Under the pieces are notes generated by a model. The model did no database searches. It was not told the DNA's origin and saw only the letters and a list, made by a program, of their open reading frames with translations. A stretch of 39,662 bases of DNA from a virus (Duplodnaviria > Heunggongvirae > Uroviricota > Caudoviricetes). Within the stretch, counting starts at the first letter, position 1. Each line of letters opens with the position of its first letter. Made by a program: the position numbers and the translations under genes. Positions 1,512 to 28,603 of the stretch are shown in pieces. The stretch is taken from IMG/VR virus record IMGVR_UViG_2541047126_000026, one strand, 5' to 3'.

Positions 1512-1757
1512 TTACATCATAGTACCGTCAGTTCCGGGCTGAACCGGCTCTGGTTGCTCTACGGGTTGAGGATCATTTTCCGTGCTGTTTTCAGCCGGAG
1601 AACGGCCAACCATTCGGGCCAGCACTTCATCAACATATGCGTCGATTTGTGCCTCAAAATCCTTGCGAACCTGCGCCTTCAGCACGCGGTTCACTTCTTC
1701 AGAATAAAGTGCCTGTTTGACAAGCTCTTCAGTAACCGTGCCTTTAATCTCTGGCAT
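1512..1757 (-). CDS. Hypothetical acidic 81 aa protein, cargo
   Basis: AAGGAG about 7 nt upstream of ATG; hydrophilic, Glu/Pro-rich C-terminus; no family recognised. Confidence 0.5.
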   Translation of the reverse strand: MPEIKGTVTEELVKQALYSEEVNRVLKAQVRKDFEAQIDAYVDEVLARMVGRSPAENSTENDPQPVEQPEPVQPGTDGTMM

Positions 1758-1792
1758 GAATATTCTCCTTTTGCAGGTATATTGCCCCGTTA

Positions 1793-1975
1793 TCAGAGCG
1801 GGGTCGGGTCGTTTGGGGATGACGGTGCCTGTGCTGTTTTACTGAGTTTTTCAGCTGCCGCATCATCAATTTTACGGCGAATATAATTTCTGATGACCTT
1901 ATAACCGCCGCTCACCAGATATAACGCACTGACCACTGCGCAGAAATAAAGCAGCATTGTATGAACGAATGTCAT
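1793..1975 (-). CDS. Hypothetical small membrane protein (60 aa), cargo
   Basis: Hydrophobic N-terminal segment LLYFCAVVSALYLVSGG followed by a basic stretch; plausible RBS upstream. Confidence 0.45.
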   Translation of the reverse strand: MTFVHTMLLYFCAVVSALYLVSGGYKVIRNYIRRKIDDAAAEKLSKTAQAPSSPNDPTPL

Positions 1976-2087
1976 ATAACCTTACCTTTGATATTGACTA
2001 CATAATTCGTTATCGGGTAAAAACATCGAAGCGACTGATAACCACTCCTTCGGGAGTATTTTTATTTTCCTTTATGGGTTAGGTAGC

Positions 2088-2125
2088 TCCCGCCAGCCAT
2101 ATCATGACCGGCGGGATTTTTTTAT
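2088..2125 (+). terminator. Hairpin plus T-run (CCCGCC...GGCGGG then ATTTTTTTA); loop is long, terminator-like on the plus strand only
   Basis: 6 bp GC stem with about 15 nt loop followed by a T-run; on the minus strand it is preceded by an A-run, so it does not look like the esterase terminator. Confidence 0.25.
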
Positions 2126-4161
2126 TCTGTTACCGCTTTTTTCACTTCCACCACAATGCTGTCAATCAGCACCGGGTAAGTTGCATTTTTTGTGATATCC
2201 GTTACGCGGAGTTTGTCCACCGGGAAAGTTCCTACTGGTGACTGCGTCAGGGTAAACGCGGCACCATCCTGACCATCAATAACCGGAATAACCTGAAGGC
2301 TGTTATTTCCTGCAAAACGGAAGGCCAGCGTATGCCATTCATTATCAAATGCACCAAAGGTTCCCAGTTTCTGGTTATTTGTTGCCACTTTTGCATTGTG
2401 GTACATCACATTCAGGTCTTTTGCGTCTGTCTGGATGTAGAACGATGCCAGCAGATTATTCCCTGCATCCCCTGTCAGGGTGACACCCTGCGGCAGAGAG
2501 GAAACCGGCCAGTAAAGCGCCATGACATACTGGTTTGCCACCAGGTCGCCCGGTACTTTAAAACGACAACTGATTAAACCACCATTTTTCAGCAGTTCAG
2601 CACCAGTACCGGCATCATGATCCAGATACCAGGATGATTTACCTGTTTCCTTGGTCAGTTTCATTGCCTTACCACCTGTGCCTCCTGCATCACTGATAAT
2701 TTCAGCTTTACCGCCAGCCGGCTCCCAGCCCTGGGCTTTCAGATTTCCTTCTGACTCACTGACACGATAAGACAGCAGTGTTGTGGTTACTGCTTCAGTT
2801 TCTGAAGGTGACGGCACTGGTGCTTCAGTTTCAGAAGATGGAACATCGGCTTTTACTGTGGTTCGCCCCGCATGAGTCAGAACTGCCGTGGCCAGACGGT
2901 CGGAAATAATCCCACGACGTGCCCATGAACTGAAATGGCTGGCCCGGTCCGCAGATGTCCAGGTGGCGGCACTGTTACGCCACGTTGAGCCGTAATAACC
3001 AATGGATTCAATATCCGGGTCTTCTGCCGGATTGTTGGTGGGTACATTCGCGTCATTTTCATCTGTCATTAATGGAACGAAATGAATGTTTTTATCTGTT
3101 TTGTTTTTGTAGCCGCCATAGATTGCCTGGTATGCCGGTTCATTTTTCTGTTTCCAGAAATACGTGGTATCGCCACAAATCCACGGAACGCCAGCAGCAC
3201 TGCCACCGGTACACTGTTCCGCCTGTTCAGCCAGGTCTGCGCGGAATTTTTCCACCATCGCCAGAAACAGCGCGGAATGCTCCGTCGGCTTCGCATCAAT
3301 ATCAAACTCGCCCTGCATCCACACCACAGCAAGCAGGCGGTTTTTCGGGTTCTTCGCCAGTGCCGCTTTTGTCCGGCTGATTAAGTCCTTATACAGCGGC
3401 TTATCCACACCCCAGCGGGCTGAGTCCTCTGAAGCACCCGTGCTGTCACTGTACGTGCCGTCAGCACCCGCCGTGAATGCAGAACCACCACGGCAGCAGG
3501 GAACCAGCAGAATCCCCGCATCTGCCGGAATAAACGGCAGCAGTTTTTTGGCAATGTGAAGCCCCTGACCCACGGTGCCATATTGCCCTTTAGCCACATC
3601 CGCTTTCGGGTGATTTTTTCCACTCATATCCTGCACATCATGCAGACAGTGGTCGGCCAGAATGATGTCGTTATACTGACAGGCTTTACCTCCCGGCGTG
3701 ACTGTACTGCGACGGGCTAACTGCATAATACGCGGTTCGGGGCGGTCATATGTCTCCGGCAGTGGCAGACCTTCACCGTAAGCCATACCGTTTGACTGAC
3801 CAGCAAGAACCACCACGTAATACCAGGAAGGGGAGCTGGAAGCAGTTTCATTTCCTGACGGACGGGTATGTGTTTCAGCATTATCCCAGTCTGACGGTTC
3901 AGCAGTGCCGGCAACATCAGCACTTAACGGAATGACCGCACCAATACCCGCTCCGGTAATTTCCACACTCGGATCACCGGATACTGGCCTTACCCACAGG
4001 CAATCCCGTGTATTAAAACTGATGAGACAGTCAGCAAATGTCATTCCTCCTTTTGTTTCGACCGGAGGAAAGGGAGCCTCAAGAAATGCCGCTGTACCAC
4101 CGGAAACTTTAACAGTAAAGTTTCCGGGCATTGATGATAGTTGAACCCATTTGGACGTCAT
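2122..4161 (-). CDS. Prophage NanS-p-like SGNH-hydrolase O-acetylesterase (N-terminal domain, esterase core, C-terminal lectin-like domain)
   Basis: 679 aa; GQSN motif in VVVLAGQSNGMAYGEG as in SASA/DUF303 sialate O-acetylesterases; extra C-terminal domain of about 250 aa; sits between gin and com where Mu has no gene. Confidence 0.65.
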   Translation of the reverse strand: MTSKWVQLSSMPGNFTVKVSGGTAAFLEAPFPPVETKGGMTFADCLISFNTRDCLWVRPVSGDPSVEITGAGIGAVIPLSADVAGTAEPSDWDNAETHTRPSGNETASSSPSWYYVVVLAGQSNGMAYGEGLPLPETYDRPEPRIMQLARRSTVTPGGKACQYNDIILADHCLHDVQDMSGKNHPKADVAKGQYGTVGQGLHIAKKLLPFIPADAGILLVPCCRGGSAFTAGADGTYSDSTGASEDSARWGVDKPLYKDLISRTKAALAKNPKNRLLAVVWMQGEFDIDAKPTEHSALFLAMVEKFRADLAEQAEQCTGGSAAGVPWICGDTTYFWKQKNEPAYQAIYGGYKNKTDKNIHFVPLMTDENDANVPTNNPAEDPDIESIGYYGSTWRNSAATWTSADRASHFSSWARRGIISDRLATAVLTHAGRTTVKADVPSSETEAPVPSPSETEAVTTTLLSYRVSESEGNLKAQGWEPAGGKAEIISDAGGTGGKAMKLTKETGKSSWYLDHDAGTGAELLKNGGLISCRFKVPGDLVANQYVMALYWPVSSLPQGVTLTGDAGNNLLASFYIQTDAKDLNVMYHNAKVATNNQKLGTFGAFDNEWHTLAFRFAGNNSLQVIPVIDGQDGAAFTLTQSPVGTFPVDKLRVTDITKNATYPVLIDSIVVEVKKAVTE

Positions 4162-4260
4162 AATAATCAGCCTGTTCCTGAATAAACTGAATTATCATAT
4201 CCACAGACCGATAAACGCCATTTTGCGTTAATTCAGTAAAGGCCCAACAAAGAGAGCGTC

Positions 4261-4821
4261 TTATTTTTCCGAAACGCTCGCAGGATAATAACGATAAAGG
4301 GTTGAAAGACCGATATCAAAAATAAGTGCCACCTGTCTTCGACTGACACCCCCGGCCAGTAAACGCCCGACCTGCTCGTATTGTTCCTGCGTGAGACGGC
4401 GGGGTCTGCCGCCGGTTCGTCCCCTTTCACGGGCAGCTGCAAGACCAGCCCGTGTCCGTTCGACAATTAATTCACGCTCCATTTCTGCCAGCGCACCCAT
4501 TATGTGAAAAAAGAAGCGCCCCATGGGGGTTGACGTATCAATGTTGTCAGTAAGACTACGAAAATTTATCCCCTGTTGCTGTAATTCATCTGTCAGCGCA
4601 ACAAGGTGGCGCATACTGCGCCCCAGCCTGTCCAGTTTCCAGACCATCAGCGTGTCACCGGGTTTTAGTTTCTTCAGTGCCCGCTTCAGTCCCGGCCGCT
4701 GTGTCGTTTTACCACTCATTTTGTCTTCAAAAATCTGCTCACATCCTGCACATTCCAGCGCATTTCTTTGTAAACCGGTGTTCTGGTCATTTGTTGATAC
4801 GCGTATATAGCCAATCAGCAT
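4261..4821 (-). CDS. gin: Gin/Hin/Pin/Cin-family serine DNA invertase
   Basis: 186 aa; N-terminus MLIGYIRVSTNDQNTGLQRNAL with catalytic Ser; very close to Mu Gin as I recall it; lies next to the invertible segment. Confidence 0.92.
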   Translation of the reverse strand: MLIGYIRVSTNDQNTGLQRNALECAGCEQIFEDKMSGKTTQRPGLKRALKKLKPGDTLMVWKLDRLGRSMRHLVALTDELQQQGINFRSLTDNIDTSTPMGRFFFHIMGALAEMERELIVERTRAGLAAARERGRTGGRPRRLTQEQYEQVGRLLAGGVSRRQVALIFDIGLSTLYRYYPASVSEK

Positions 4822-4851
4822 GTATTTACCTTCCTTAAAAAGAGGTGAAAA

Positions 4852-5271
4852 TGCCTTTTAAAACAGATATACGGTATCCCTGAAAACCTCGGTTTACGGG
4901 AAACGGTAAATAAGGCTGCTGATGCCCTGCCATCGGGTGGAACCGCCGTGGCAGCAAACAGACTCGCCACCCCAAGAAATATTAATGGTGTTCCTTTTGA
5001 CGGAACGCTGGATATCAACATCACGTCAGGAATGACGCAGTCAACCGCAGATGGCCGGTATGTACAGAATGTTCAGCTTGGAGCACAGAGCTATCATTCA
5101 CCCGGAGGCAATGAAATGTCATGGAATTACAGCGCACCTTCCGGTTGTATGCTTTCCGGAATTAACGTGCAGGAAACCGGCTCCCGGTCTGCGGACAATA
5201 TCGGTGGGGTCTATTATCGCCCGGTTCAGATTTATATTAATAATGCCTGGAGAACGGTAAGTTCAGTGTAA
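4852..5271 (+). CDS. Silent alternative tail-fiber C-terminal cassette (S'v-like)
   Basis: Encodes ...GLRETVNKAADALPSGGTAVAANRLATPRNINGVPFDGTLDINITSGMTQSTADGRYVQ..., homologous to the C-terminal part of the expressed fiber, then a divergent tip; wrong strand for late transcription in this orientation. Confidence 0.6.
   Translation, partial: CLLKQIYGIPENLGLRETVNKAADALPSGGTAVAANRLATPRNINGVPFDGTLDINITSGMTQSTADGRYVQNVQLGAQSYHSPGGNEMSWNYSAPSGCMLSGINVQETGSRSADNIGGVYYRPVQIYINNAWRTVSSV
4877..4902. other. gix-like crossover site 1, gin-proximal
   Basis: TCCCTGAAAACC-TC-GGTTTACGGGAA, an imperfect 26 bp palindrome resembling gix/hix; inverted relative to site 2; 27 bp (4889..4915) are identical to the reverse complement of 6239..6265. 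Confidence 0.6.
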
Positions 5272-5285
5272 ACCACAGAAAAGGG

Positions 5286-5304
5286 TGCTGAATGCACCCT
5301 CTGA
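5286..5304. terminator. Hairpin between the convergent S'v cassette and U
   Basis: AGGGTGC-tgaat-GCACCCT, perfect 7 bp stem; T-rich flank on the minus-strand reading. Confidence 0.35.
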
Positions 5305-5305
5305 A

Positions 5306-5827
5306 TTATTCCGGTTTTTCCGGCCAGGGAATCGCCTGGTAATGCCCCTCACTGGCAATATCATTAAAGTGCATTTCTTTAAGCTGTCGGATATACGCCA
5401 TCCAGCGCGTCAGCTGTAATTTATTTTCATCGCTAATCATGTCCAGTTTTAATTCTGTTTTCCAGTCATCCACGGTTTCGTTGGCTTCCTGGAGCAGCGA
5501 TGAGCGGCGATTTTCAGCAACCGTCTTCCAGTTTACCGGCACCTTTGATATCAGGCCATCAGAAAACTGCCAGTTACCGTCAATATTCACACCTTCCGGC
5601 AGTTCATCCACTTCAACAACAGTAAAACCTGCCGGATATAAAGCAGAGACATCTTCAGCAACAGAGCAGATAATACCCGTTACAGGCGAAATACAGAGTT
5701 TGTATTTCTTTGTGAAAAGCGGGATAGATTCATAAAAATCCCTTCCGTCCTCACTCTGGAAATACTGAACATCCTCACCATAGGGTTTGTGTTCCGGGTA
5801 ATATCGTTTTACGTTAATAAGCTCCAT
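5306..5827 (-). CDS. U: Tail fibre assembly protein (Mu U / Tfa-like); track ORF 5306..5938, internal Met start preferred
   Basis: Layout matches Tfa proteins (YPEHKPYGEDVQYFQSEDGRDFYE, PAGFTVVEVDELPEG, C-terminal PWPEKPE); AAGGTG RBS upstream of the MELINVKRYY start. Confidence 0.7.
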   Translation of the reverse strand: MELINVKRYYPEHKPYGEDVQYFQSEDGRDFYESIPLFTKKYKLCISPVTGIICSVAEDVSALYPAGFTVVEVDELPEGVNIDGNWQFSDGLISKVPVNWKTVAENRRSSLLQEANETVDDWKTELKLDMISDENKLQLTRWMAYIRQLKEMHFNDIASEGHYQAIPWPEKPE

Positions 5828-5906
5828 TATTTCACCTTGTTTTTGTTGAAAAGACAAAATCATCATATATTTATTCAGATAATCTGTTTTTTGAACTACT
5901 GCACTT

Positions 5907-6794
5907 TTATGCGCTGGAAGCTGTTTTCCACGAACCATCTATCAGAAACTGAACAGGTCGATAATATGCGGTTACCGTTGCATTACCATCACCAGCGACA
6001 TCAAGCCCTGTAAGTACGCATCCGTCAGGAACTTCAAAAATATTATATTGCATTCCAATCGTTGACCTTGAACCTCTTCGAATGCTTTGAACATAACGTG
6101 AGTCAGCCACAGACTGCGTCATCCCCGATGTAATATTTATATCCTGCGTTCCGTCAAATGGGACACCATTAATATTTTTTGGAGTGGCGAGTTTATTCGC
6201 TGCAACAGCCGTTCCGTTCGATGGCAGGGCATTCGCCGCCTTATTTACCGTTTCCCGTAAACCGACGTTATCGATAAAAGCGCCTTTATCCGGAATGTCT
6301 GCGCCGTTCTGCTCCCTGCGCAGGTAACGGTTATCACCTTCGCTTTTGCTGTAAACATCCAGATTATTACGGGCGGTTCCCGCATTCTCCAGGTCGGCAA
6401 GGTTCTGATCCTTCGCCAGAGCATTAACGTCACCGGGACCAAGACTGTTTTTTGTGGCAAGCGCCCCAAGACCAAGATAACCACGGGCAAGACGCTGGGC
6501 TTCCGCACCGGCATCAGCAATTTCTTTCAGGTTGTTTTTCCGGGAAAAGGCATTCGCAGCGATAATGGCTTTAATGGACAGCGTAAGCTGGTTTAACTGC
6601 GCCTTATCCGGCTGAATACTGGCTTCAGCCAGAATATTCAGCAGTTCGGCCTGGAGAATATTCAGCCAGTCCTGACCAATCCAGCTGATACCTTTTTGTC
6701 CGTCACCTTCGGTAAACCAGGTGGTGGTATTACTCTGCGCCGGTGCCAGCGCAGGCATATTCGCCACGCCGGAATTATTATCAACATGGAACAT
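5907..6794 (-). CDS. S: Tail fibre protein: constant part plus currently expressed variable tip (Mu S-like); track ORF extends to 6848
   Basis: Directly downstream of the gp48-like gene with TAATG stop/start overlap; C-terminal part lies inside the invertible segment and is homologous to the plus-strand cassette. Confidence 0.7.
   Translation of the reverse strand: MFHVDNNSGVANMPALAPAQSNTTTWFTEGDGQKGISWIGQDWLNILQAELLNILAEASIQPDKAQLNQLTLSIKAIIAANAFSRKNNLKEIADAGAEAQRLARGYLGLGALATKNSLGPGDVNALAKDQNLADLENAGTARNNLDVYSKSEGDNRYLRREQNGADIPDKGAFIDNVGLRETVNKAANALPSNGTAVAANKLATPKNINGVPFDGTQDINITSGMTQSVADSRYVQSIRRGSRSTIGMQYNIFEVPDGCVLTGLDVAGDGNATVTAYYRPVQFLIDGSWKTASSA
6252..6277. other. gix-like crossover site 2, inside the tail-fibre gene
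   Basis: TTCCCGTAAACC-GA-CGTTATCGATAA; left half identical to the half-site of site 1; inverted orientation relative to site 1. Confidence 0.6.
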
Positions 6795-7354
6795 TAAATA
6801 TTCCCCTCTTCGTGACTGTTTGCATATACGTAAATAAACGTCTGCCATGCAGGCTTATAACGGTTCAGAATACATTCCAGCGCACCGCCCTCATAAATAC
6901 GCAGCGGCGTGAGAATATCATCCAGCACATTCATATTCCGGTAGCCGGTTTCACTGTTTATCGTGACAATACTGACCCACTGTGAATCCGGTGATGGCTG
7001 GATATCTATTTCATAACCAAACTCTGCCGCAAACCGGATATAAAATTCACGGTTAAGAGAGGGTTTCATCCGGTATTTATTCCCTGCATAACGCTGACGT
7101 TCCTGAATGGTTGCGCCGGTCATATCACATTCCGGTAACCCCAGATAACGCTCCCAGTCTTCCAGCAGCAGACGGGATGAATCAGGAAAACGTTCTGCCA
7201 GCATCTGGTTACCGGTCCAGGAAACACGCTCCGTGGAATGACTGAGGCCCAGGCACAAAGCTGCAAGAACGGATGACGGCCGCTTATCCCATGCCAGCCC
7301 GTCAGGCAGCAACTGCAACAGGGCGCGCTGATGCGGGGTCAGGGTTACAGCCAT
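6794..7354 (-). CDS. Baseplate/tail protein (Mu gp48-like, DUF2313 type)
   Basis: 186 aa; between the baseplate J-like gene and the tail fibre, as in Mu. Confidence 0.65.
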   Translation of the reverse strand: MAVTLTPHQRALLQLLPDGLAWDKRPSSVLAALCLGLSHSTERVSWTGNQMLAERFPDSSRLLLEDWERYLGLPECDMTGATIQERQRYAGNKYRMKPSLNREFYIRFAAEFGYEIDIQPSPDSQWVSIVTINSETGYRNMNVLDDILTPLRIYEGGALECILNRYKPAWQTFIYVYANSHEEGNI

Positions 7355-8430
7355 GTGATTTCCCCCACGGTCAGCAACTCTGTATCTCCGGCCATCACGG
7401 ACTTCAGCGGACTGCGAACTTCAAAATCCTCCAGTCCTTTCACCCCTGCAACAGCCCGCCAGAATGATGAAGGCAATACAAGTCCACCCGGCCGCGATTC
7501 GTTATAAAGCAGGTCCGTTAATGCCTGTTTTACGGCAGCCTGATTTTCCGGCGTTTTGGGTACAATCCTGATCTCAAACGCCACCGGCTTATTGGTCAGC
7601 TTAAACACGCTGATTGTCGGCCCAAGTGGCTGACCAACGGGCTGGCCCGTCGCCGGATCATCATGACTGCGGATATAATCCGCCACCCGCTTCACATCAC
7701 CTTCTCCGGGGAAAATGTCAGGGTTATTATCCTGAACAAAAGTCACACCAACACTACCCGCCTCAGGCCATTCAGGCTTACACCATGCCCGCGTCACGCC
7801 CGGTACTTCCCGTGCCCAGCGTTCAAAATCATACTGTGTTCCCCCTGATGGCGGGTTCTGTACCCGGAATACCAGCCTGGACAGCAACTCCGGCACCGTT
7901 TCCACATCCGCACCACCGGTGAGTCCCGTGCCGGTAACCGTGGCTGTCTGGTTGATGCCCGCCTGTGGCGTGATAAAGGACAGGCGGGTTCCGGTCGGGG
8001 TATTTCCGGCGCGCCCCGCACTTTCCGCCTCCACATTAACATTCAGTGTTCCGGCTTTTCCGGTCGCAGAGCCGGTGATGCGGTACACAACACCATCGCT
8101 TCGCTGAAGGAGTACGCCTTCCGTGATCCCTGCATCCGTGGTCAGCATCAGTTGTACCGGTCCGTCAGCGCGGGAAGCCGGTTTACGGATGACACCCCAG
8201 AATGCGCAGTGTTTCAGGAGTTCGGCTTCATCAGCTTCTGTCGGAATTATCTGCCGGGAGATCCAGGCCAGATGTTCATGCTCCTGTGCTGACAGACCCG
8301 CCAGTGCATACGCAATGGCATTCAGGGTGGTTTCATTCACGCCCGGCTGCGAACCGGGCAGGCGCTGGCTGATATCCTGTTGTGTCTGTGTGATCAGTTG
8401 CGCCAGTGGTAAGGGCTGATAAGGCATCAT
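7345..8430 (-). CDS. Baseplate J-like protein (Mu gp47-like)
   Basis: 361 aa; position and size fit the Mu baseplate wedge protein. Confidence 0.75.
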   Translation of the reverse strand: MMPYQPLPLAQLITQTQQDISQRLPGSQPGVNETTLNAIAYALAGLSAQEHEHLAWISRQIIPTEADEAELLKHCAFWGVIRKPASRADGPVQLMLTTDAGITEGVLLQRSDGVVYRITGSATGKAGTLNVNVEAESAGRAGNTPTGTRLSFITPQAGINQTATVTGTGLTGGADVETVPELLSRLVFRVQNPPSGGTQYDFERWAREVPGVTRAWCKPEWPEAGSVGVTFVQDNNPDIFPGEGDVKRVADYIRSHDDPATGQPVGQPLGPTISVFKLTNKPVAFEIRIVPKTPENQAAVKQALTDLLYNESRPGGLVLPSSFWRAVAGVKGLEDFEVRSPLKSVMAGDTELLTVGEITWL

Positions 8431-19079: not shown

Positions 19080-20203
19080 TATTGCATTTCCTCTTTCATT
19101 TTCAGGAACTCGGCTTCGGTTTTACCCAGCAGATGGGCAGCGGCGATATCTTCAGCCGACAGCGCAGCGGTGGCAGTCTTTTTATCCGGCACGGTCACGG
19201 TGTCGGTCTGAAGGCCGGTCAGGGCCGCAACCGGCTGTCGGGCGTCAAGCTGTGCAGAAAGTGCCGCAACACCAATCTGCCCACCCAGTTGTTCCAGATA
19301 GCCGCGTTCGCTTTTGAAGATGCGCCCTTCGGATTCAGCCTTGTCCAGCACCTGCTCCAGCGTGGTGCTGCCGTGCTGTGCCGACAGCGCAACGTATTCG
19401 GTACGCAGGGCGTTATACGTTTCAACGGGCACGTATTTCGTCAGATCAATACTGCCGCCAGCCGGTGTGCCTTTTGCGGTTTCCAGCTCTGCCGACAGAC
19501 TGGCGACCTGTGTTTTCAGGTTGTCGTGTGCATCCGCGCGGGTTTTGATCCCTGTGAGGGCAGACAGCGCCGCCGTGCCCAGCTCCGGCGTAAATTCGTC
19601 ACCGTCAGCCACGGTCAGACCGAGCGCTGTCAGCAACTGGCGTAATTGCTCATTCATGGAGGTATCCTTTAAAGGAGGGTTTAAGGCGTTATAAAGGTCA
19701 TCCGCCGACAGCGCGGCGACAGGATTCATGCCGGTCAGACCGGGGTCACCGGTAATAGCCAGCATCCGAAGTTCGACAGGTTCGCCGGTGCTCTCGTCAT
19801 AGCCAATCACCGGTGAAAACCAGGGGAATTCGTTATTACGCAGATGTTCAAGGGCCGGAGGGTTCCACTTCGGGCGCACCTCGAAGCCACGCTCTTCACT
19901 GAAGCGGAAGTTTTCCGGTGAAGCCATCACAAAACCGGCAGCCGGTGCCGGATGCCCCTTAATCAGGGTCTGGTGGTTGTAGTCAATTTTCACCGGCTGA
20001 TTGAGCGCCACAACCCGGGAGACCATGCGCTCAACGGCTGCATGGTTGATCAGCCAGCCCTCGGCCGGTTTTTCCGGGCGACCGTCACGGGCCTTTACCC
20101 GACCGGCTGGCATGATCTGACACCAGTCACCGTCCCCGTCTGCGGACAGGCTGATGGCATTCAGAATGGCATAAGCAAGTTTGGGCGTGTTTTTCGTCTT
20201 CAT
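19079..20203 (-). CDS. I: Head protease/scaffold protein (Mu I-like)
   Basis: 374 aa; position between G and T. Confidence 0.8.
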   Translation of the reverse strand: MKTKNTPKLAYAILNAISLSADGDGDWCQIMPAGRVKARDGRPEKPAEGWLINHAAVERMVSRVVALNQPVKIDYNHQTLIKGHPAPAAGFVMASPENFRFSEERGFEVRPKWNPPALEHLRNNEFPWFSPVIGYDESTGEPVELRMLAITGDPGLTGMNPVAALSADDLYNALNPPLKDTSMNEQLRQLLTALGLTVADGDEFTPELGTAALSALTGIKTRADAHDNLKTQVASLSAELETAKGTPAGGSIDLTKYVPVETYNALRTEYVALSAQHGSTTLEQVLDKAESEGRIFKSERGYLEQLGGQIGVAALSAQLDARQPVAALTGLQTDTVTVPDKKTATAALSAEDIAAAHLLGKTEAEFLKMKEEMQ

Positions 20204-20379
20204 TCCGGCAGCATAAGCCGGGAATTTTCAGGGCGGGTTTTGCGGGATTTCAGGAAGTGCTTCCAGGGGAAAAATACAAAGGCGCTTCACGCAGATTTTA
20301 AAGCCCGTTAAATTCAGGTTAGAAAATCACGACACGCGCCTGAAGGGGGTAAGGTAATGCATTTGCATACCTTAAACAA
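20204..20379 (-). promoter_or_regulatory. Intergenic region upstream of I; candidate activator-dependent late promoter (P_I equivalent)
   Basis: 176 bp non-coding gap in an otherwise overlapping gene array, at the position of Mu P_I; no motif verified. Confidence 0.3.
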
Positions 20380-20853
20380 TTAAGGCGTTTCTGTGGCCTT
20401 TTTAAAGCGTTTTCTGATTTCGTCCATGATCTCCTGCTCTGCCACCTGATCAAAGCCCATATACGGACGTGCACCAATGGCCGCCGGTCCCGGCGGCATA
20501 CCTGGCAGGCCACCCCACTGATGAATGGCCGCATAAGGCTCATTTGATCCAATCAGCGCCCAGGTGTCGCCATAATCCGTGGTCAGGCGTCGGGCCAGAT
20601 CGCCGTTCAGCGTCAGGATTTTGCCGGGCATGTATCCCTTACGGGTACGCCACTTGCGGTAAGGATCTGACCAGTCATGCCAGCGTTCGCCGTCCGGCTC
20701 TTTTTCCTGTTCAAACGCCATTTCTGACGATGACAGAAGGCTGGACGCCACACTGCGGGCCAGGTCTTTTCCGCCACCCACAAACTGAAGCCGGGCAAAG
20801 ACCCGCTGGAGACGCGTAACGTCAACAACGACGGCGGCATCAATGGATGACAT
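20380..20853 (-). CDS. G: Virion morphogenesis protein (Mu G-like)
   Basis: 157 aa; synteny between F and I. Confidence 0.7.
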   Translation of the reverse strand: MSSIDAAVVVDVTRLQRVFARLQFVGGGKDLARSVASSLLSSSEMAFEQEKEPDGERWHDWSDPYRKWRTRKGYMPGKILTLNGDLARRLTTDYGDTWALIGSNEPYAAIHQWGGLPGMPPGPAAIGARPYMGFDQVAEQEIMDEIRKRFKKATETP

Positions 20854-28106: not shown

Positions 28107-28177
28107 TGTTACGCTGTCTCATGATGTTCTCTGAGTCAGCGTAACGGTGAAGGAGAGGCGGCAGGCTTTGCGGAATA

Positions 28178-28603
28178 TCAGAAAAGTGGCGGTTGCGTTC
28201 TTGCCAGATGCAGACGGCGCTGTTCGCGTATGACGGTATAAATCTGGGTTTCTGACATCCGGTAATGGCGGCGAAGGGATTCAATTTTCTCGCCCCGGTC
28301 CCAGCGCGAAAATATCTCATTGTTTCGCAGCTCGGCAAAGAGAGATTCCCCGACCGGCAGGTAATAACCCCGTCCGCCCATATAGGCTGCCTGAGCCGCA
28401 GCCACCTTGCGTGCCAGTTTACCGGCCAGTACCGGCTCAATCCCCTGACGCTGAAGTTCTGCGCCGGTGACTTCAACCAGTTCTGACAGGGTCCGCGGCC
28501 AGTTCTTTTTGAGAACATCATCAGGGATGTCATCAAGGCGGTCGATAAGGGCGTGCAGTTGCTCACTGTCACCACCAAACATGCTCATCTGAGTTTCTGC
28601 CAT
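28178..28603 (-). CDS. Mor/C-family transcriptional activator of middle/late genes
   Basis: 141 aa; C-terminal HTH (ESLRRHYRMSETQIYTVIREQRRL) and overall layout of Mu Mor/C; located between GemA and lys. Confidence 0.75.
   Translation of the reverse strand: MAETQMSMFGGDSEQLHALIDRLDDIPDDVLKKNWPRTLSELVEVTGAELQRQGIEPVLAGKLARKVAAAQAAYMGGRGYYLPVGESLFAELRNNEIFSRWDRGEKIESLRRHYRMSETQIYTVIREQRRLHLARTQPPLF

Follow-up and report, generated by a model that had tools for sequence, protein, structure and literature searches.

The 39,662-nt stretch of viral DNA analysed here (IMG/VR record IMGVR_UViG_2541047126_000026, hereafter the window) is, according to the map of its open reading frames (ORFs) and Pfam domains, a Mu-like prophage read on the minus strand, and comparison of its sequence places it with the Sp18-type Mu-like prophages of Shiga-toxin Escherichia coli (STEC). 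The equivalent of the Mu G segment in this element, 1,375 bp between two inverted gix-like sites, very probably works as an active Gin/gix switch of the tail-fibre tip. A switch of this kind is already on record for Sp18, since Asadulghani et al. (2009, PMC2669165) mention an "invertible host-specificity region" of the Sp18-type Mu-like prophage. The interpretation offered by a first-pass annotation of this DNA was therefore right but not new, and the sole unusual point is that there is one chaperone gene for two tips.

We propose the following model. The Gin invertase encoded at positions 4261–4821 would bind the two gix-like sites, exchange strands at their TC/GA cores, and invert the 1,375 bp between them. 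The late tail operon, comprising gp47, gp48, and the constant part of the fibre gene (Sc), runs on the minus strand and would cross the fibre-gene site at position 6264. In the orientation of the window, designated state A, reading would continue through Sc-Sv, a fibre of 295 aa, and then Tfa, the tail-fibre assembly chaperone. In the flipped orientation, state B, it would give Sc-Sv', a fibre of 303 aa, and would end at a hairpin, with Sv and tfa facing the other way. The anatomy, the homologies, the in-frame fusion, and the existence of both states in nature with the junction inside a 28-bp identity are shown by the analysis. We infer that this Gin catalyses the inversion with the help of Fis and an enhancer and that host range changes with the state, and the route by which Tfa reaches the Sv' fibre is likewise inferred.

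The gin-proximal gix-like site is located at positions 4877–4902 (TCCCTGAAAACC-TC-GGTTTACGGGAA, core TC at 4889–4890), and the site within the fibre gene at positions 6252–6277 (in reverse complement, TTATCGATAACG-TC-GGTTTACGGGAA; core GA at 6264–6265). The two are inverted with respect to each other and share an identical, asymmetric 2-bp core (TC/GA), which is also the core of Mu. Compared with the gix sequence taken from the Mu record (TTATCCAAAACCTCGGTTTACAGGAA; both boundaries of the Mu G segment carry TTATCCAAAACCTCGGTTTACAGGAAACGGTAAA), they are identical at 20 and 22 of the 26 positions, respectively. The crossover falls inside the fibre ORF at codons homologous to those of Mu (FIDNVGLRETVN here, FIQNLGLQETVN in Mu).

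Perfect identity between the two copies extends over 28 bp (4889–4916 versus 6265–6238), which comprise the core, the inner half-site, and 14 more bp inside the segment. This run lies within longer inverted-repeat arms: the left arm (4882–5066, in the 5' part of Sv') has 185 nt and is 81% complementary to the right arm (6088–6272, in the 5' part of Sv), in which the perfect run occupies positions 6238–6265. A 28-bp perfect inverted repeat with 185-nt arms inside 1.4 kb is far beyond chance. A scan with a half-site matrix found no third gix-like site in the 39.6-kb window, and with only two sites only two states are possible.

The first-pass annotation had located both 26-bp sites correctly, and the alignment with Mu gix, which it had suggested as a check, bears out their resemblance and the shared TC core. 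It had given 27 bp of perfect identity and about 100 bp of weaker homology; both features exist, and both are longer than it stated. Its description of a segment of about 1.4 kb, under half the length of the Mu G segment, agrees with the core-to-core distances of 1,375 bp here and 3,059 bp in Mu.

The constant N-terminal part of fibre S, Sc (positions 6264–6794, minus strand; baseplate attachment), lies outside the segment. It starts at position 6794 with MFHVDNNSGV, which aligns with MFYIDNDSGV of Mu, and RefSeq annotates the same 295-aa coding sequence (CDS); residues 1–198 of the fibre are 46% identical to residues 1–191 of Mu S. Sv, the tip expressed in the window's orientation (5907–6263, minus strand; 118 codons and a stop), makes up the C-terminal part of S, an ORF of 295 aa, and its last ~65 aa are 40% identical to the tip of Mu S. 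The alternative tip, Sv' (4891–5271, plus strand; 126 codons and a stop), is promoterless and homologous to the tip of Mu S and to P2-type H tips. Its frame is open from position 4849, with an in-frame stop at 4846 and no start codon, and the tip can therefore be expressed only as a fusion to Sc. In silico inversion at the cores produces this fusion, an in-frame Sc-Sv' fibre of 303 aa instead of the 295 aa of Sc-Sv, and the 303-aa fibre is annotated in RefSeq as an intact CDS in flipped genomes.

The content ascribed to the segment by the first-pass annotation, namely a fibre tip and a U-like chaperone gene on one strand and a second tip on the other, is what we find (the minus strand carries Sv and tfa, the plus strand the promoterless Sv'), and the in silico flip exchanges the tips as it had anticipated. 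Its labels "expressed" and "silent" are correct for the state of the window only; as general terms they fail, the other state being the commoner one (183 versus 27 genomes, see below).

Over their last ~65–70 aa, both tips can be aligned with the distal tip of Mu S (structure PDB 5yvq), and Sv and Sv' differ strongly from each other over the last ~70 aa. Since the tips are diverged copies of one distal domain of the Mu-S/P2-H type, the flip should change receptor specificity, and the two states should accordingly differ in host range if the tips act as their homology predicts. Neither tip has the ~245-aa middle part of Mu S (residues ~192–436); the segment is compact because the tips are thus short and because it contains a single tfa. 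Both tips are intact in every allele examined, and their ratios of nonsynonymous to synonymous substitution (dN/dS) are 0.09–0.14 relative to diverged alleles (0.11 for Sv' relative to a 79%-identical allele and 0.14 for Sv), with values up to 0.49 between near-identical alleles. These ratios indicate that both tips are under purifying selection.

It should be noted that two E. coli alleles with a Mu-like Sv (L007 and L008, positions 3210–3250) contain an in-frame relic after the Sv stop. It consists of the 11 last codons of another tip, INGSWRTAGSA and a stop; the Sv of the window ends with IDGSWKTASSA and a stop. The relic looks like a footprint of tip replacement through recombination.

The gin gene (positions 4261–4821, minus strand) reads away from the segment and encodes a serine DNA invertase of 186 aa with the Pfam domains Resolvase (1.4e-51) and HTH_7 (1.7e-14). 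The ORF is intact, nearly invariant across alleles, and carries the catalytic-serine motif YIRVSTNDQ at residues 5–13; the protein shares 75% identity with Mu Gin over 181 aa and 72% with e14 PinE. The gene lies 68 nt from the proximal core, immediately next to the segment, as had been noted at first pass.

Comparison of assemblies gives a strong indication that the segment inverts. When the region 4200–6900 was inverted in silico, it was 100.0% identical over 2,701 nt to the corresponding regions of E. coli O157:H7 Z1825 and Z1826, while the best match in the window's own orientation was 99.7% identical. Among complete E. coli genomes (coverage of at least 80%), 183 are in state B and 27 in state A, and both states are also present among draft assemblies and IMG/VR contigs. 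In RefSeq, the gene for one and the same Tfa protein, WP_000420351.1, runs in the direction of gp48 and the fibre gene in some genomes and against it in others. Five strains, Z869, 07_3636, SMN197SH3, OkiPb01679, and 8479, carry two copies of the prophage in opposite states, these copies being at least 99% identical to the query. The junction lies inside the 28 identical bp that start at the core, which fits exchange at the core and is also compatible with exchange elsewhere in this run.

The prophage insertion sites vary between strains, indicating that many of the lysogens are independent events and not one clone counted repeatedly; this variation is consistent with ongoing transposition. 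One insertion site occupied in both orientations would prove a flip in situ; for the site of strain 2-6-2 no such pair was found, because none of the other genomes among the 5,426 shares it. Matches of 98–100% with identical gene content occur in O157:H7, O111, O103, and O26 genomes, and the window is a mosaic that is 98–99.5% identical to the Z1825 copy along the prophage. In strain 8479, one of the two prophage copies is on a 167-kb second replicon.

Several observations weigh against an active switch. At equilibrium, a switch that reverses freely should give a ratio of ~1:1, and the observed split is 183 to 27. In their outer half-sites, the two gix-like sites are degenerate and agree at only 6 of 12 positions (manual count). 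In the 5' part of gin, where a Fis-dependent enhancer is expected, none is recognisable with confidence: the first 240 nt of gin are 67–87% identical to Mu gin in 30-nt windows, and candidate Fis-like 15-mers in this region are off the conserved positions and spacing, the motif being too degenerate to decide. Furthermore, tfa is antisense in state B, where neither a sigma-70 scan nor the late-promoter motif of the phage revealed a promoter for it. Finally, the literature searched contained no experiment on this element, and inversion is deduced from the comparison of assemblies.

The skewed orientations, the degenerate outer half-sites, and the unrecognisable enhancer would suit a fossil switch, in which the two orientations are old polymorphisms fixed in separate phage lineages and flipping has ceased. 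We consider this very improbable, because the window, once flipped, agrees with Z1825/Z1826 at 100.0% over 2.7 kb, above any match in the same orientation, and double lysogens hold copies at least 99% identical in opposite states; gin has, moreover, remained intact and nearly invariant, and the 28-bp identity has been kept between arms that are otherwise 81% alike. Inversion without Gin, through RecA-dependent homologous recombination between the 185-nt arms, deserves hardly any credence: the arms are long enough to register as repeats and the junctions do not distinguish core exchange from exchange elsewhere in the 28 identical bp, but 28 bp of perfect identity with an 81%-identical remainder is a poor RecA substrate, the gix core is precisely where the identity starts, a dedicated invertase gene is 68 nt away, and the same layout recurs in many Gin-linked cassettes with unrelated arm sequences.

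With an active Gin/gix switch as the preferred reading, the picture becomes more complex when the chaperone is considered. The tfa gene (positions 5306–5827, minus strand) encodes a U-like tail-fibre assembly chaperone of 173 aa with a Caudo_TAP domain (Pfam, 1.3e-18; 67.8 bits against PF02413, gathering cut-off 22.1). The protein matches Mu U in the structure PDB 5yvq_B (E 1.7e-15) and is 28–31% identical to Mu U and U'. An untranslated spacer of 79 nt with 75% A+T (5828–5906, minus strand) separates the S stop from the tfa start. At the other end, only 34 nt lie between the convergent stops of tfa and Sv', and they contain a hairpin (5280–5302), which a terminator scan found to be terminator-like on the minus strand; its folding energy is −14.7 kcal/mol on both strands, with z = −2.9 and −4.0.

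The minus-strand order in state A is hence Sc-Sv, spacer, tfa, and hairpin, while in state B the only tfa of the phage is antisense to the fibre operon and behind the hairpin. The arrangement of Mu, in which each tip has its own chaperone gene (S-U, S'-U'), is not found here: there is one Caudo_TAP gene for two tips. No second tfa was detected anywhere in the window by tblastn with a panel of Tfa proteins, which rules out another copy in the prophage as the source of chaperone. A third gix site that would flip tfa alone is likewise ruled out by the half-site scan of the window.

A recognisable promoter for tfa was also sought, and none that convinces was found. The sigma-70 scan found none in 5828–6263 on the minus strand, and the late-promoter motif CTGAWATYCCGCAAARCCYGCC, derived from the upstream regions of the lysozyme and protease genes of the phage, has no match in the segment. 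Weak hexamer pairs (8–9 of 12 positions) occur in this spacer and in five unrelated ones and are estimated to be no better than chance in A+T-rich DNA.

Our preferred guess for state B, to which we give slightly less than even confidence, is that tfa is transcribed in either orientation from its own promoter, located in or upstream of the 79-nt spacer, which travels with the gene, so that one Tfa would serve both tips. The length and A+T-richness of the spacer point in this direction: the gap between fibre gene and tfa is 69–95 nt in other single-tfa cassettes (L011 of Citrobacter braakii; L058; L087; L098), whereas phages that pair every tip with a separate tfa have 2 nt (Mu S-U) or 1–3 nt (SfMu, a P2-like phage) at this place. 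The tfa allele is also independent of the tip allele, the tfa of L008 being 97.7% identical to that of the window and adjoining a different, Mu-like Sv, and the hairpin parts the convergent genes. On the other hand, the promoter-like matches stay at the level estimated for chance, the late-promoter motif is without a match, and the single-tfa type represented by L084 and L092 has no spacer at all.

An unlikely possibility is that the Sv' fibre folds and works without Tfa or on traces of it, in which case the flip would toggle between a Tfa-associated and a Tfa-free fibre. State B prevails in lysogens from many different insertion sites, and if the orientation is inherited from the infecting virion, as is reported for Mu (summarised in PMC4406740), this prevalence suggests that Sv' virions are infective. 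Moreover, Sv' stays 97% identical even beside a tfa that is only 64% identical, and single-tfa cassettes with two or three tips are common. These arguments are countered by the surroundings of the same tip type elsewhere: in SfMu and in a P2-like phage, a tfa of its own starts 1–3 nt after the tip, and in C. braakii, too, the tip is followed by a tfa. The Mu fibre, in addition, is described in a cryo-electron microscopy study as gp49 plus gp50 (PMC11915804), and the conservation of Sv' goes along with that of gin, the two forming one mosaic block.

Less likely still, state B particles may be without properly assembled fibres, so that the switch would be partly an on/off control of infectivity and the excess of state B would reflect a biased inversion equilibrium. 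The antisense position of tfa and the failure to find a promoter for it would fit this explanation, and biased equilibria of up to 90:10 are documented in other prophage invertible segments (supplement of PMC4272514). However, Sv' is intact and under purifying selection (dN/dS of 0.09–0.11 relative to diverged alleles), which is hard to explain if this tip is never used.

We regard it as doubtful that the cassette is an asymmetric switch in which, in the state of ~87% of the sequenced lysogens, a tip of the Mu-S/P2-H type is expressed while the sole tfa is reversed behind the terminator-like hairpin. If Tfa is really not made in state B, either this widespread tip type assembles without a chaperone, or each inversion moves the phage from a fibre with Tfa to one without it and back; such a toggle, if true, would constitute a second layer of host-range or infectivity control.

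Among the closest known systems is the Mu G segment (Sc-[Sv U / U' Sv']), which has the same order of gp47, gp48, S, segment, gin, com, and mom. Mu and the window share the TC core of gix, the inner flank GGTTTAC.GGAAACGGTAAA, the position of the crossover at a homologous S codon, and a distal tip domain and a Tfa that are homologues of Mu S and U, respectively. They differ in that Mu has U and U' where the window has one tfa, and in that S and U are coupled through 2 nt where the window has a 79-nt spacer. Only the window has outer half-sites that differ from each other and a 3.3-kb SASA/DUF6645-DUF1378-DUF826 cassette between gin and com. Sp18 of O157:H7 Sakai and related STEC Mu-like prophages belong to the same element family, within which the window is in the minority orientation.

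The P segment of e14 (pinE; stfP-tfaP / tfaE-stfE) differs in having two tfa genes, unrelated collar-type tips, and a site with a TT core, AAACCTTGGTTTGGGAGAA (supplement of PMC4272514). This segment and other Pin-type cassettes of P2-like phages and defective prophages resemble that of the window in being compact (1.3–2.2 kb) and in lying beside a baseplate gene of the gp48/YmfQ type, and in many of them one Caudo_TAP gene accompanies two or three tips. The phase-variable "Mu prophage" of enteropathogenic E. coli E2348/69 (Goldberg et al. 2014, PMC4272514) was considered as a precedent and set aside; it represents another kind of element, of the pix type, in which the core is TT and the segment measures 1.9 kb.

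The frequency of the single-tfa layout was estimated from 24 IMG/VR loci (L033–L110; cassettes of 1.3–2.2 kb) with a Gin relative and a recognisable repeat, which were not deduplicated. Of these 24 cassettes, 18 combine two or three tips (three each in L055 and L087) with just one full-length tfa-like gene, and the other 6 have two such genes. Short tips and a single tfa are both common among Gin/Pin-linked cassettes, and the compact layout is thus not unusual. In L092 and L105, a 21-aa remnant of a second tfa is present, which suggests that a second tfa copy was lost.

A protein-guided scan of GTDB species genomes yielded few relatives, of which only Citrobacter braakii was informative. Its strain ATCC 51113 (L011, positions 5812–8223) has three gix-like sites, at about 5820, 7856, and 8223, three tips, and one tfa of 229 aa carrying a DUF4376 domain. 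A textbook bidirectional terminator lies between its convergent genes at the same place as the hairpin of the window. To judge from this layout, the locus is a small multi-state version of the same switch; like the multi-site Min systems of the p15B type, it has more than two sites, whereas the window has just two.

The switch would set the receptor-binding tip on the virions of a transposable prophage that is common in O157:H7, O111, O103, and O26 STEC, and it therefore bears on the hosts these virions can reach. It also accounts for a difference of 1.4 kb that recurs between STEC assemblies identical in other respects, as well as for fragmentary annotations such as "phage tail protein, missing N-terminus", a 67-aa "tail fiber protein", and a "frameshifted" pseudogene. 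The wider question is in what way a lone Tfa gene supplies two or three tips expressed in opposite orientations, which is the commonest layout among the Gin-linked cassettes sampled; with 18 of 24 cassettes being of the single-tfa type, an answer on Tfa supply would apply to a whole class of prophage switches.

Outside the segment, the gene map of the window coincides with the RefSeq annotation of near-identical prophage copies. On the side of gin, the minus strand carries mom (positions 1–738) and com (692–937), and on the other side gp48 (6794–7354, minus strand), followed by gp47 and the remaining baseplate genes. Between gin and com/mom there is an insert of 3.3 kb (1512–4161, minus strand) without a counterpart in Mu, which encodes DUF826 and DUF1378 proteins and a 679-aa SASA/DUF6645 protein (SASA, sialate O-acetylesterase domain). 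This trio resembles the NanS-p esterase region downstream of stx in lambdoid Shiga toxin (Stx) phages, and the insert therefore looks like a cargo cassette common to different phage types.

The 22-nt motif CTGAWATYCCGCAAARCCYGCC occurs twice in the window, at positions 20232–20253 and 28160–28181 on the minus strand, upstream of the head protease gene and the lysozyme gene, where chance would give 0.01 matches. The late activator of the phage probably binds to this motif, which is unlike the CCATAACCCC box common to the four Mu late promoters.

In the Z1825 copy of the prophage (L006, positions 19567–20843), the genes for the minor head protein and for virion morphogenesis are separated by an insertion of the IS3 family and a feature annotated as "tRNA-OTHER"; the window at about 19663–20045 aligns with this insertion region in a patchy manner, with 94% identity over 954 nt. 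The same Mu-like phage is also annotated inside Stx2c- and Stx1a-converting phages (LC727881.1, positions 35677–75644, and LC727895.1), that is, as a prophage within a prophage, and its Sv' allele there is only 84% identical to the Sv' of the window.

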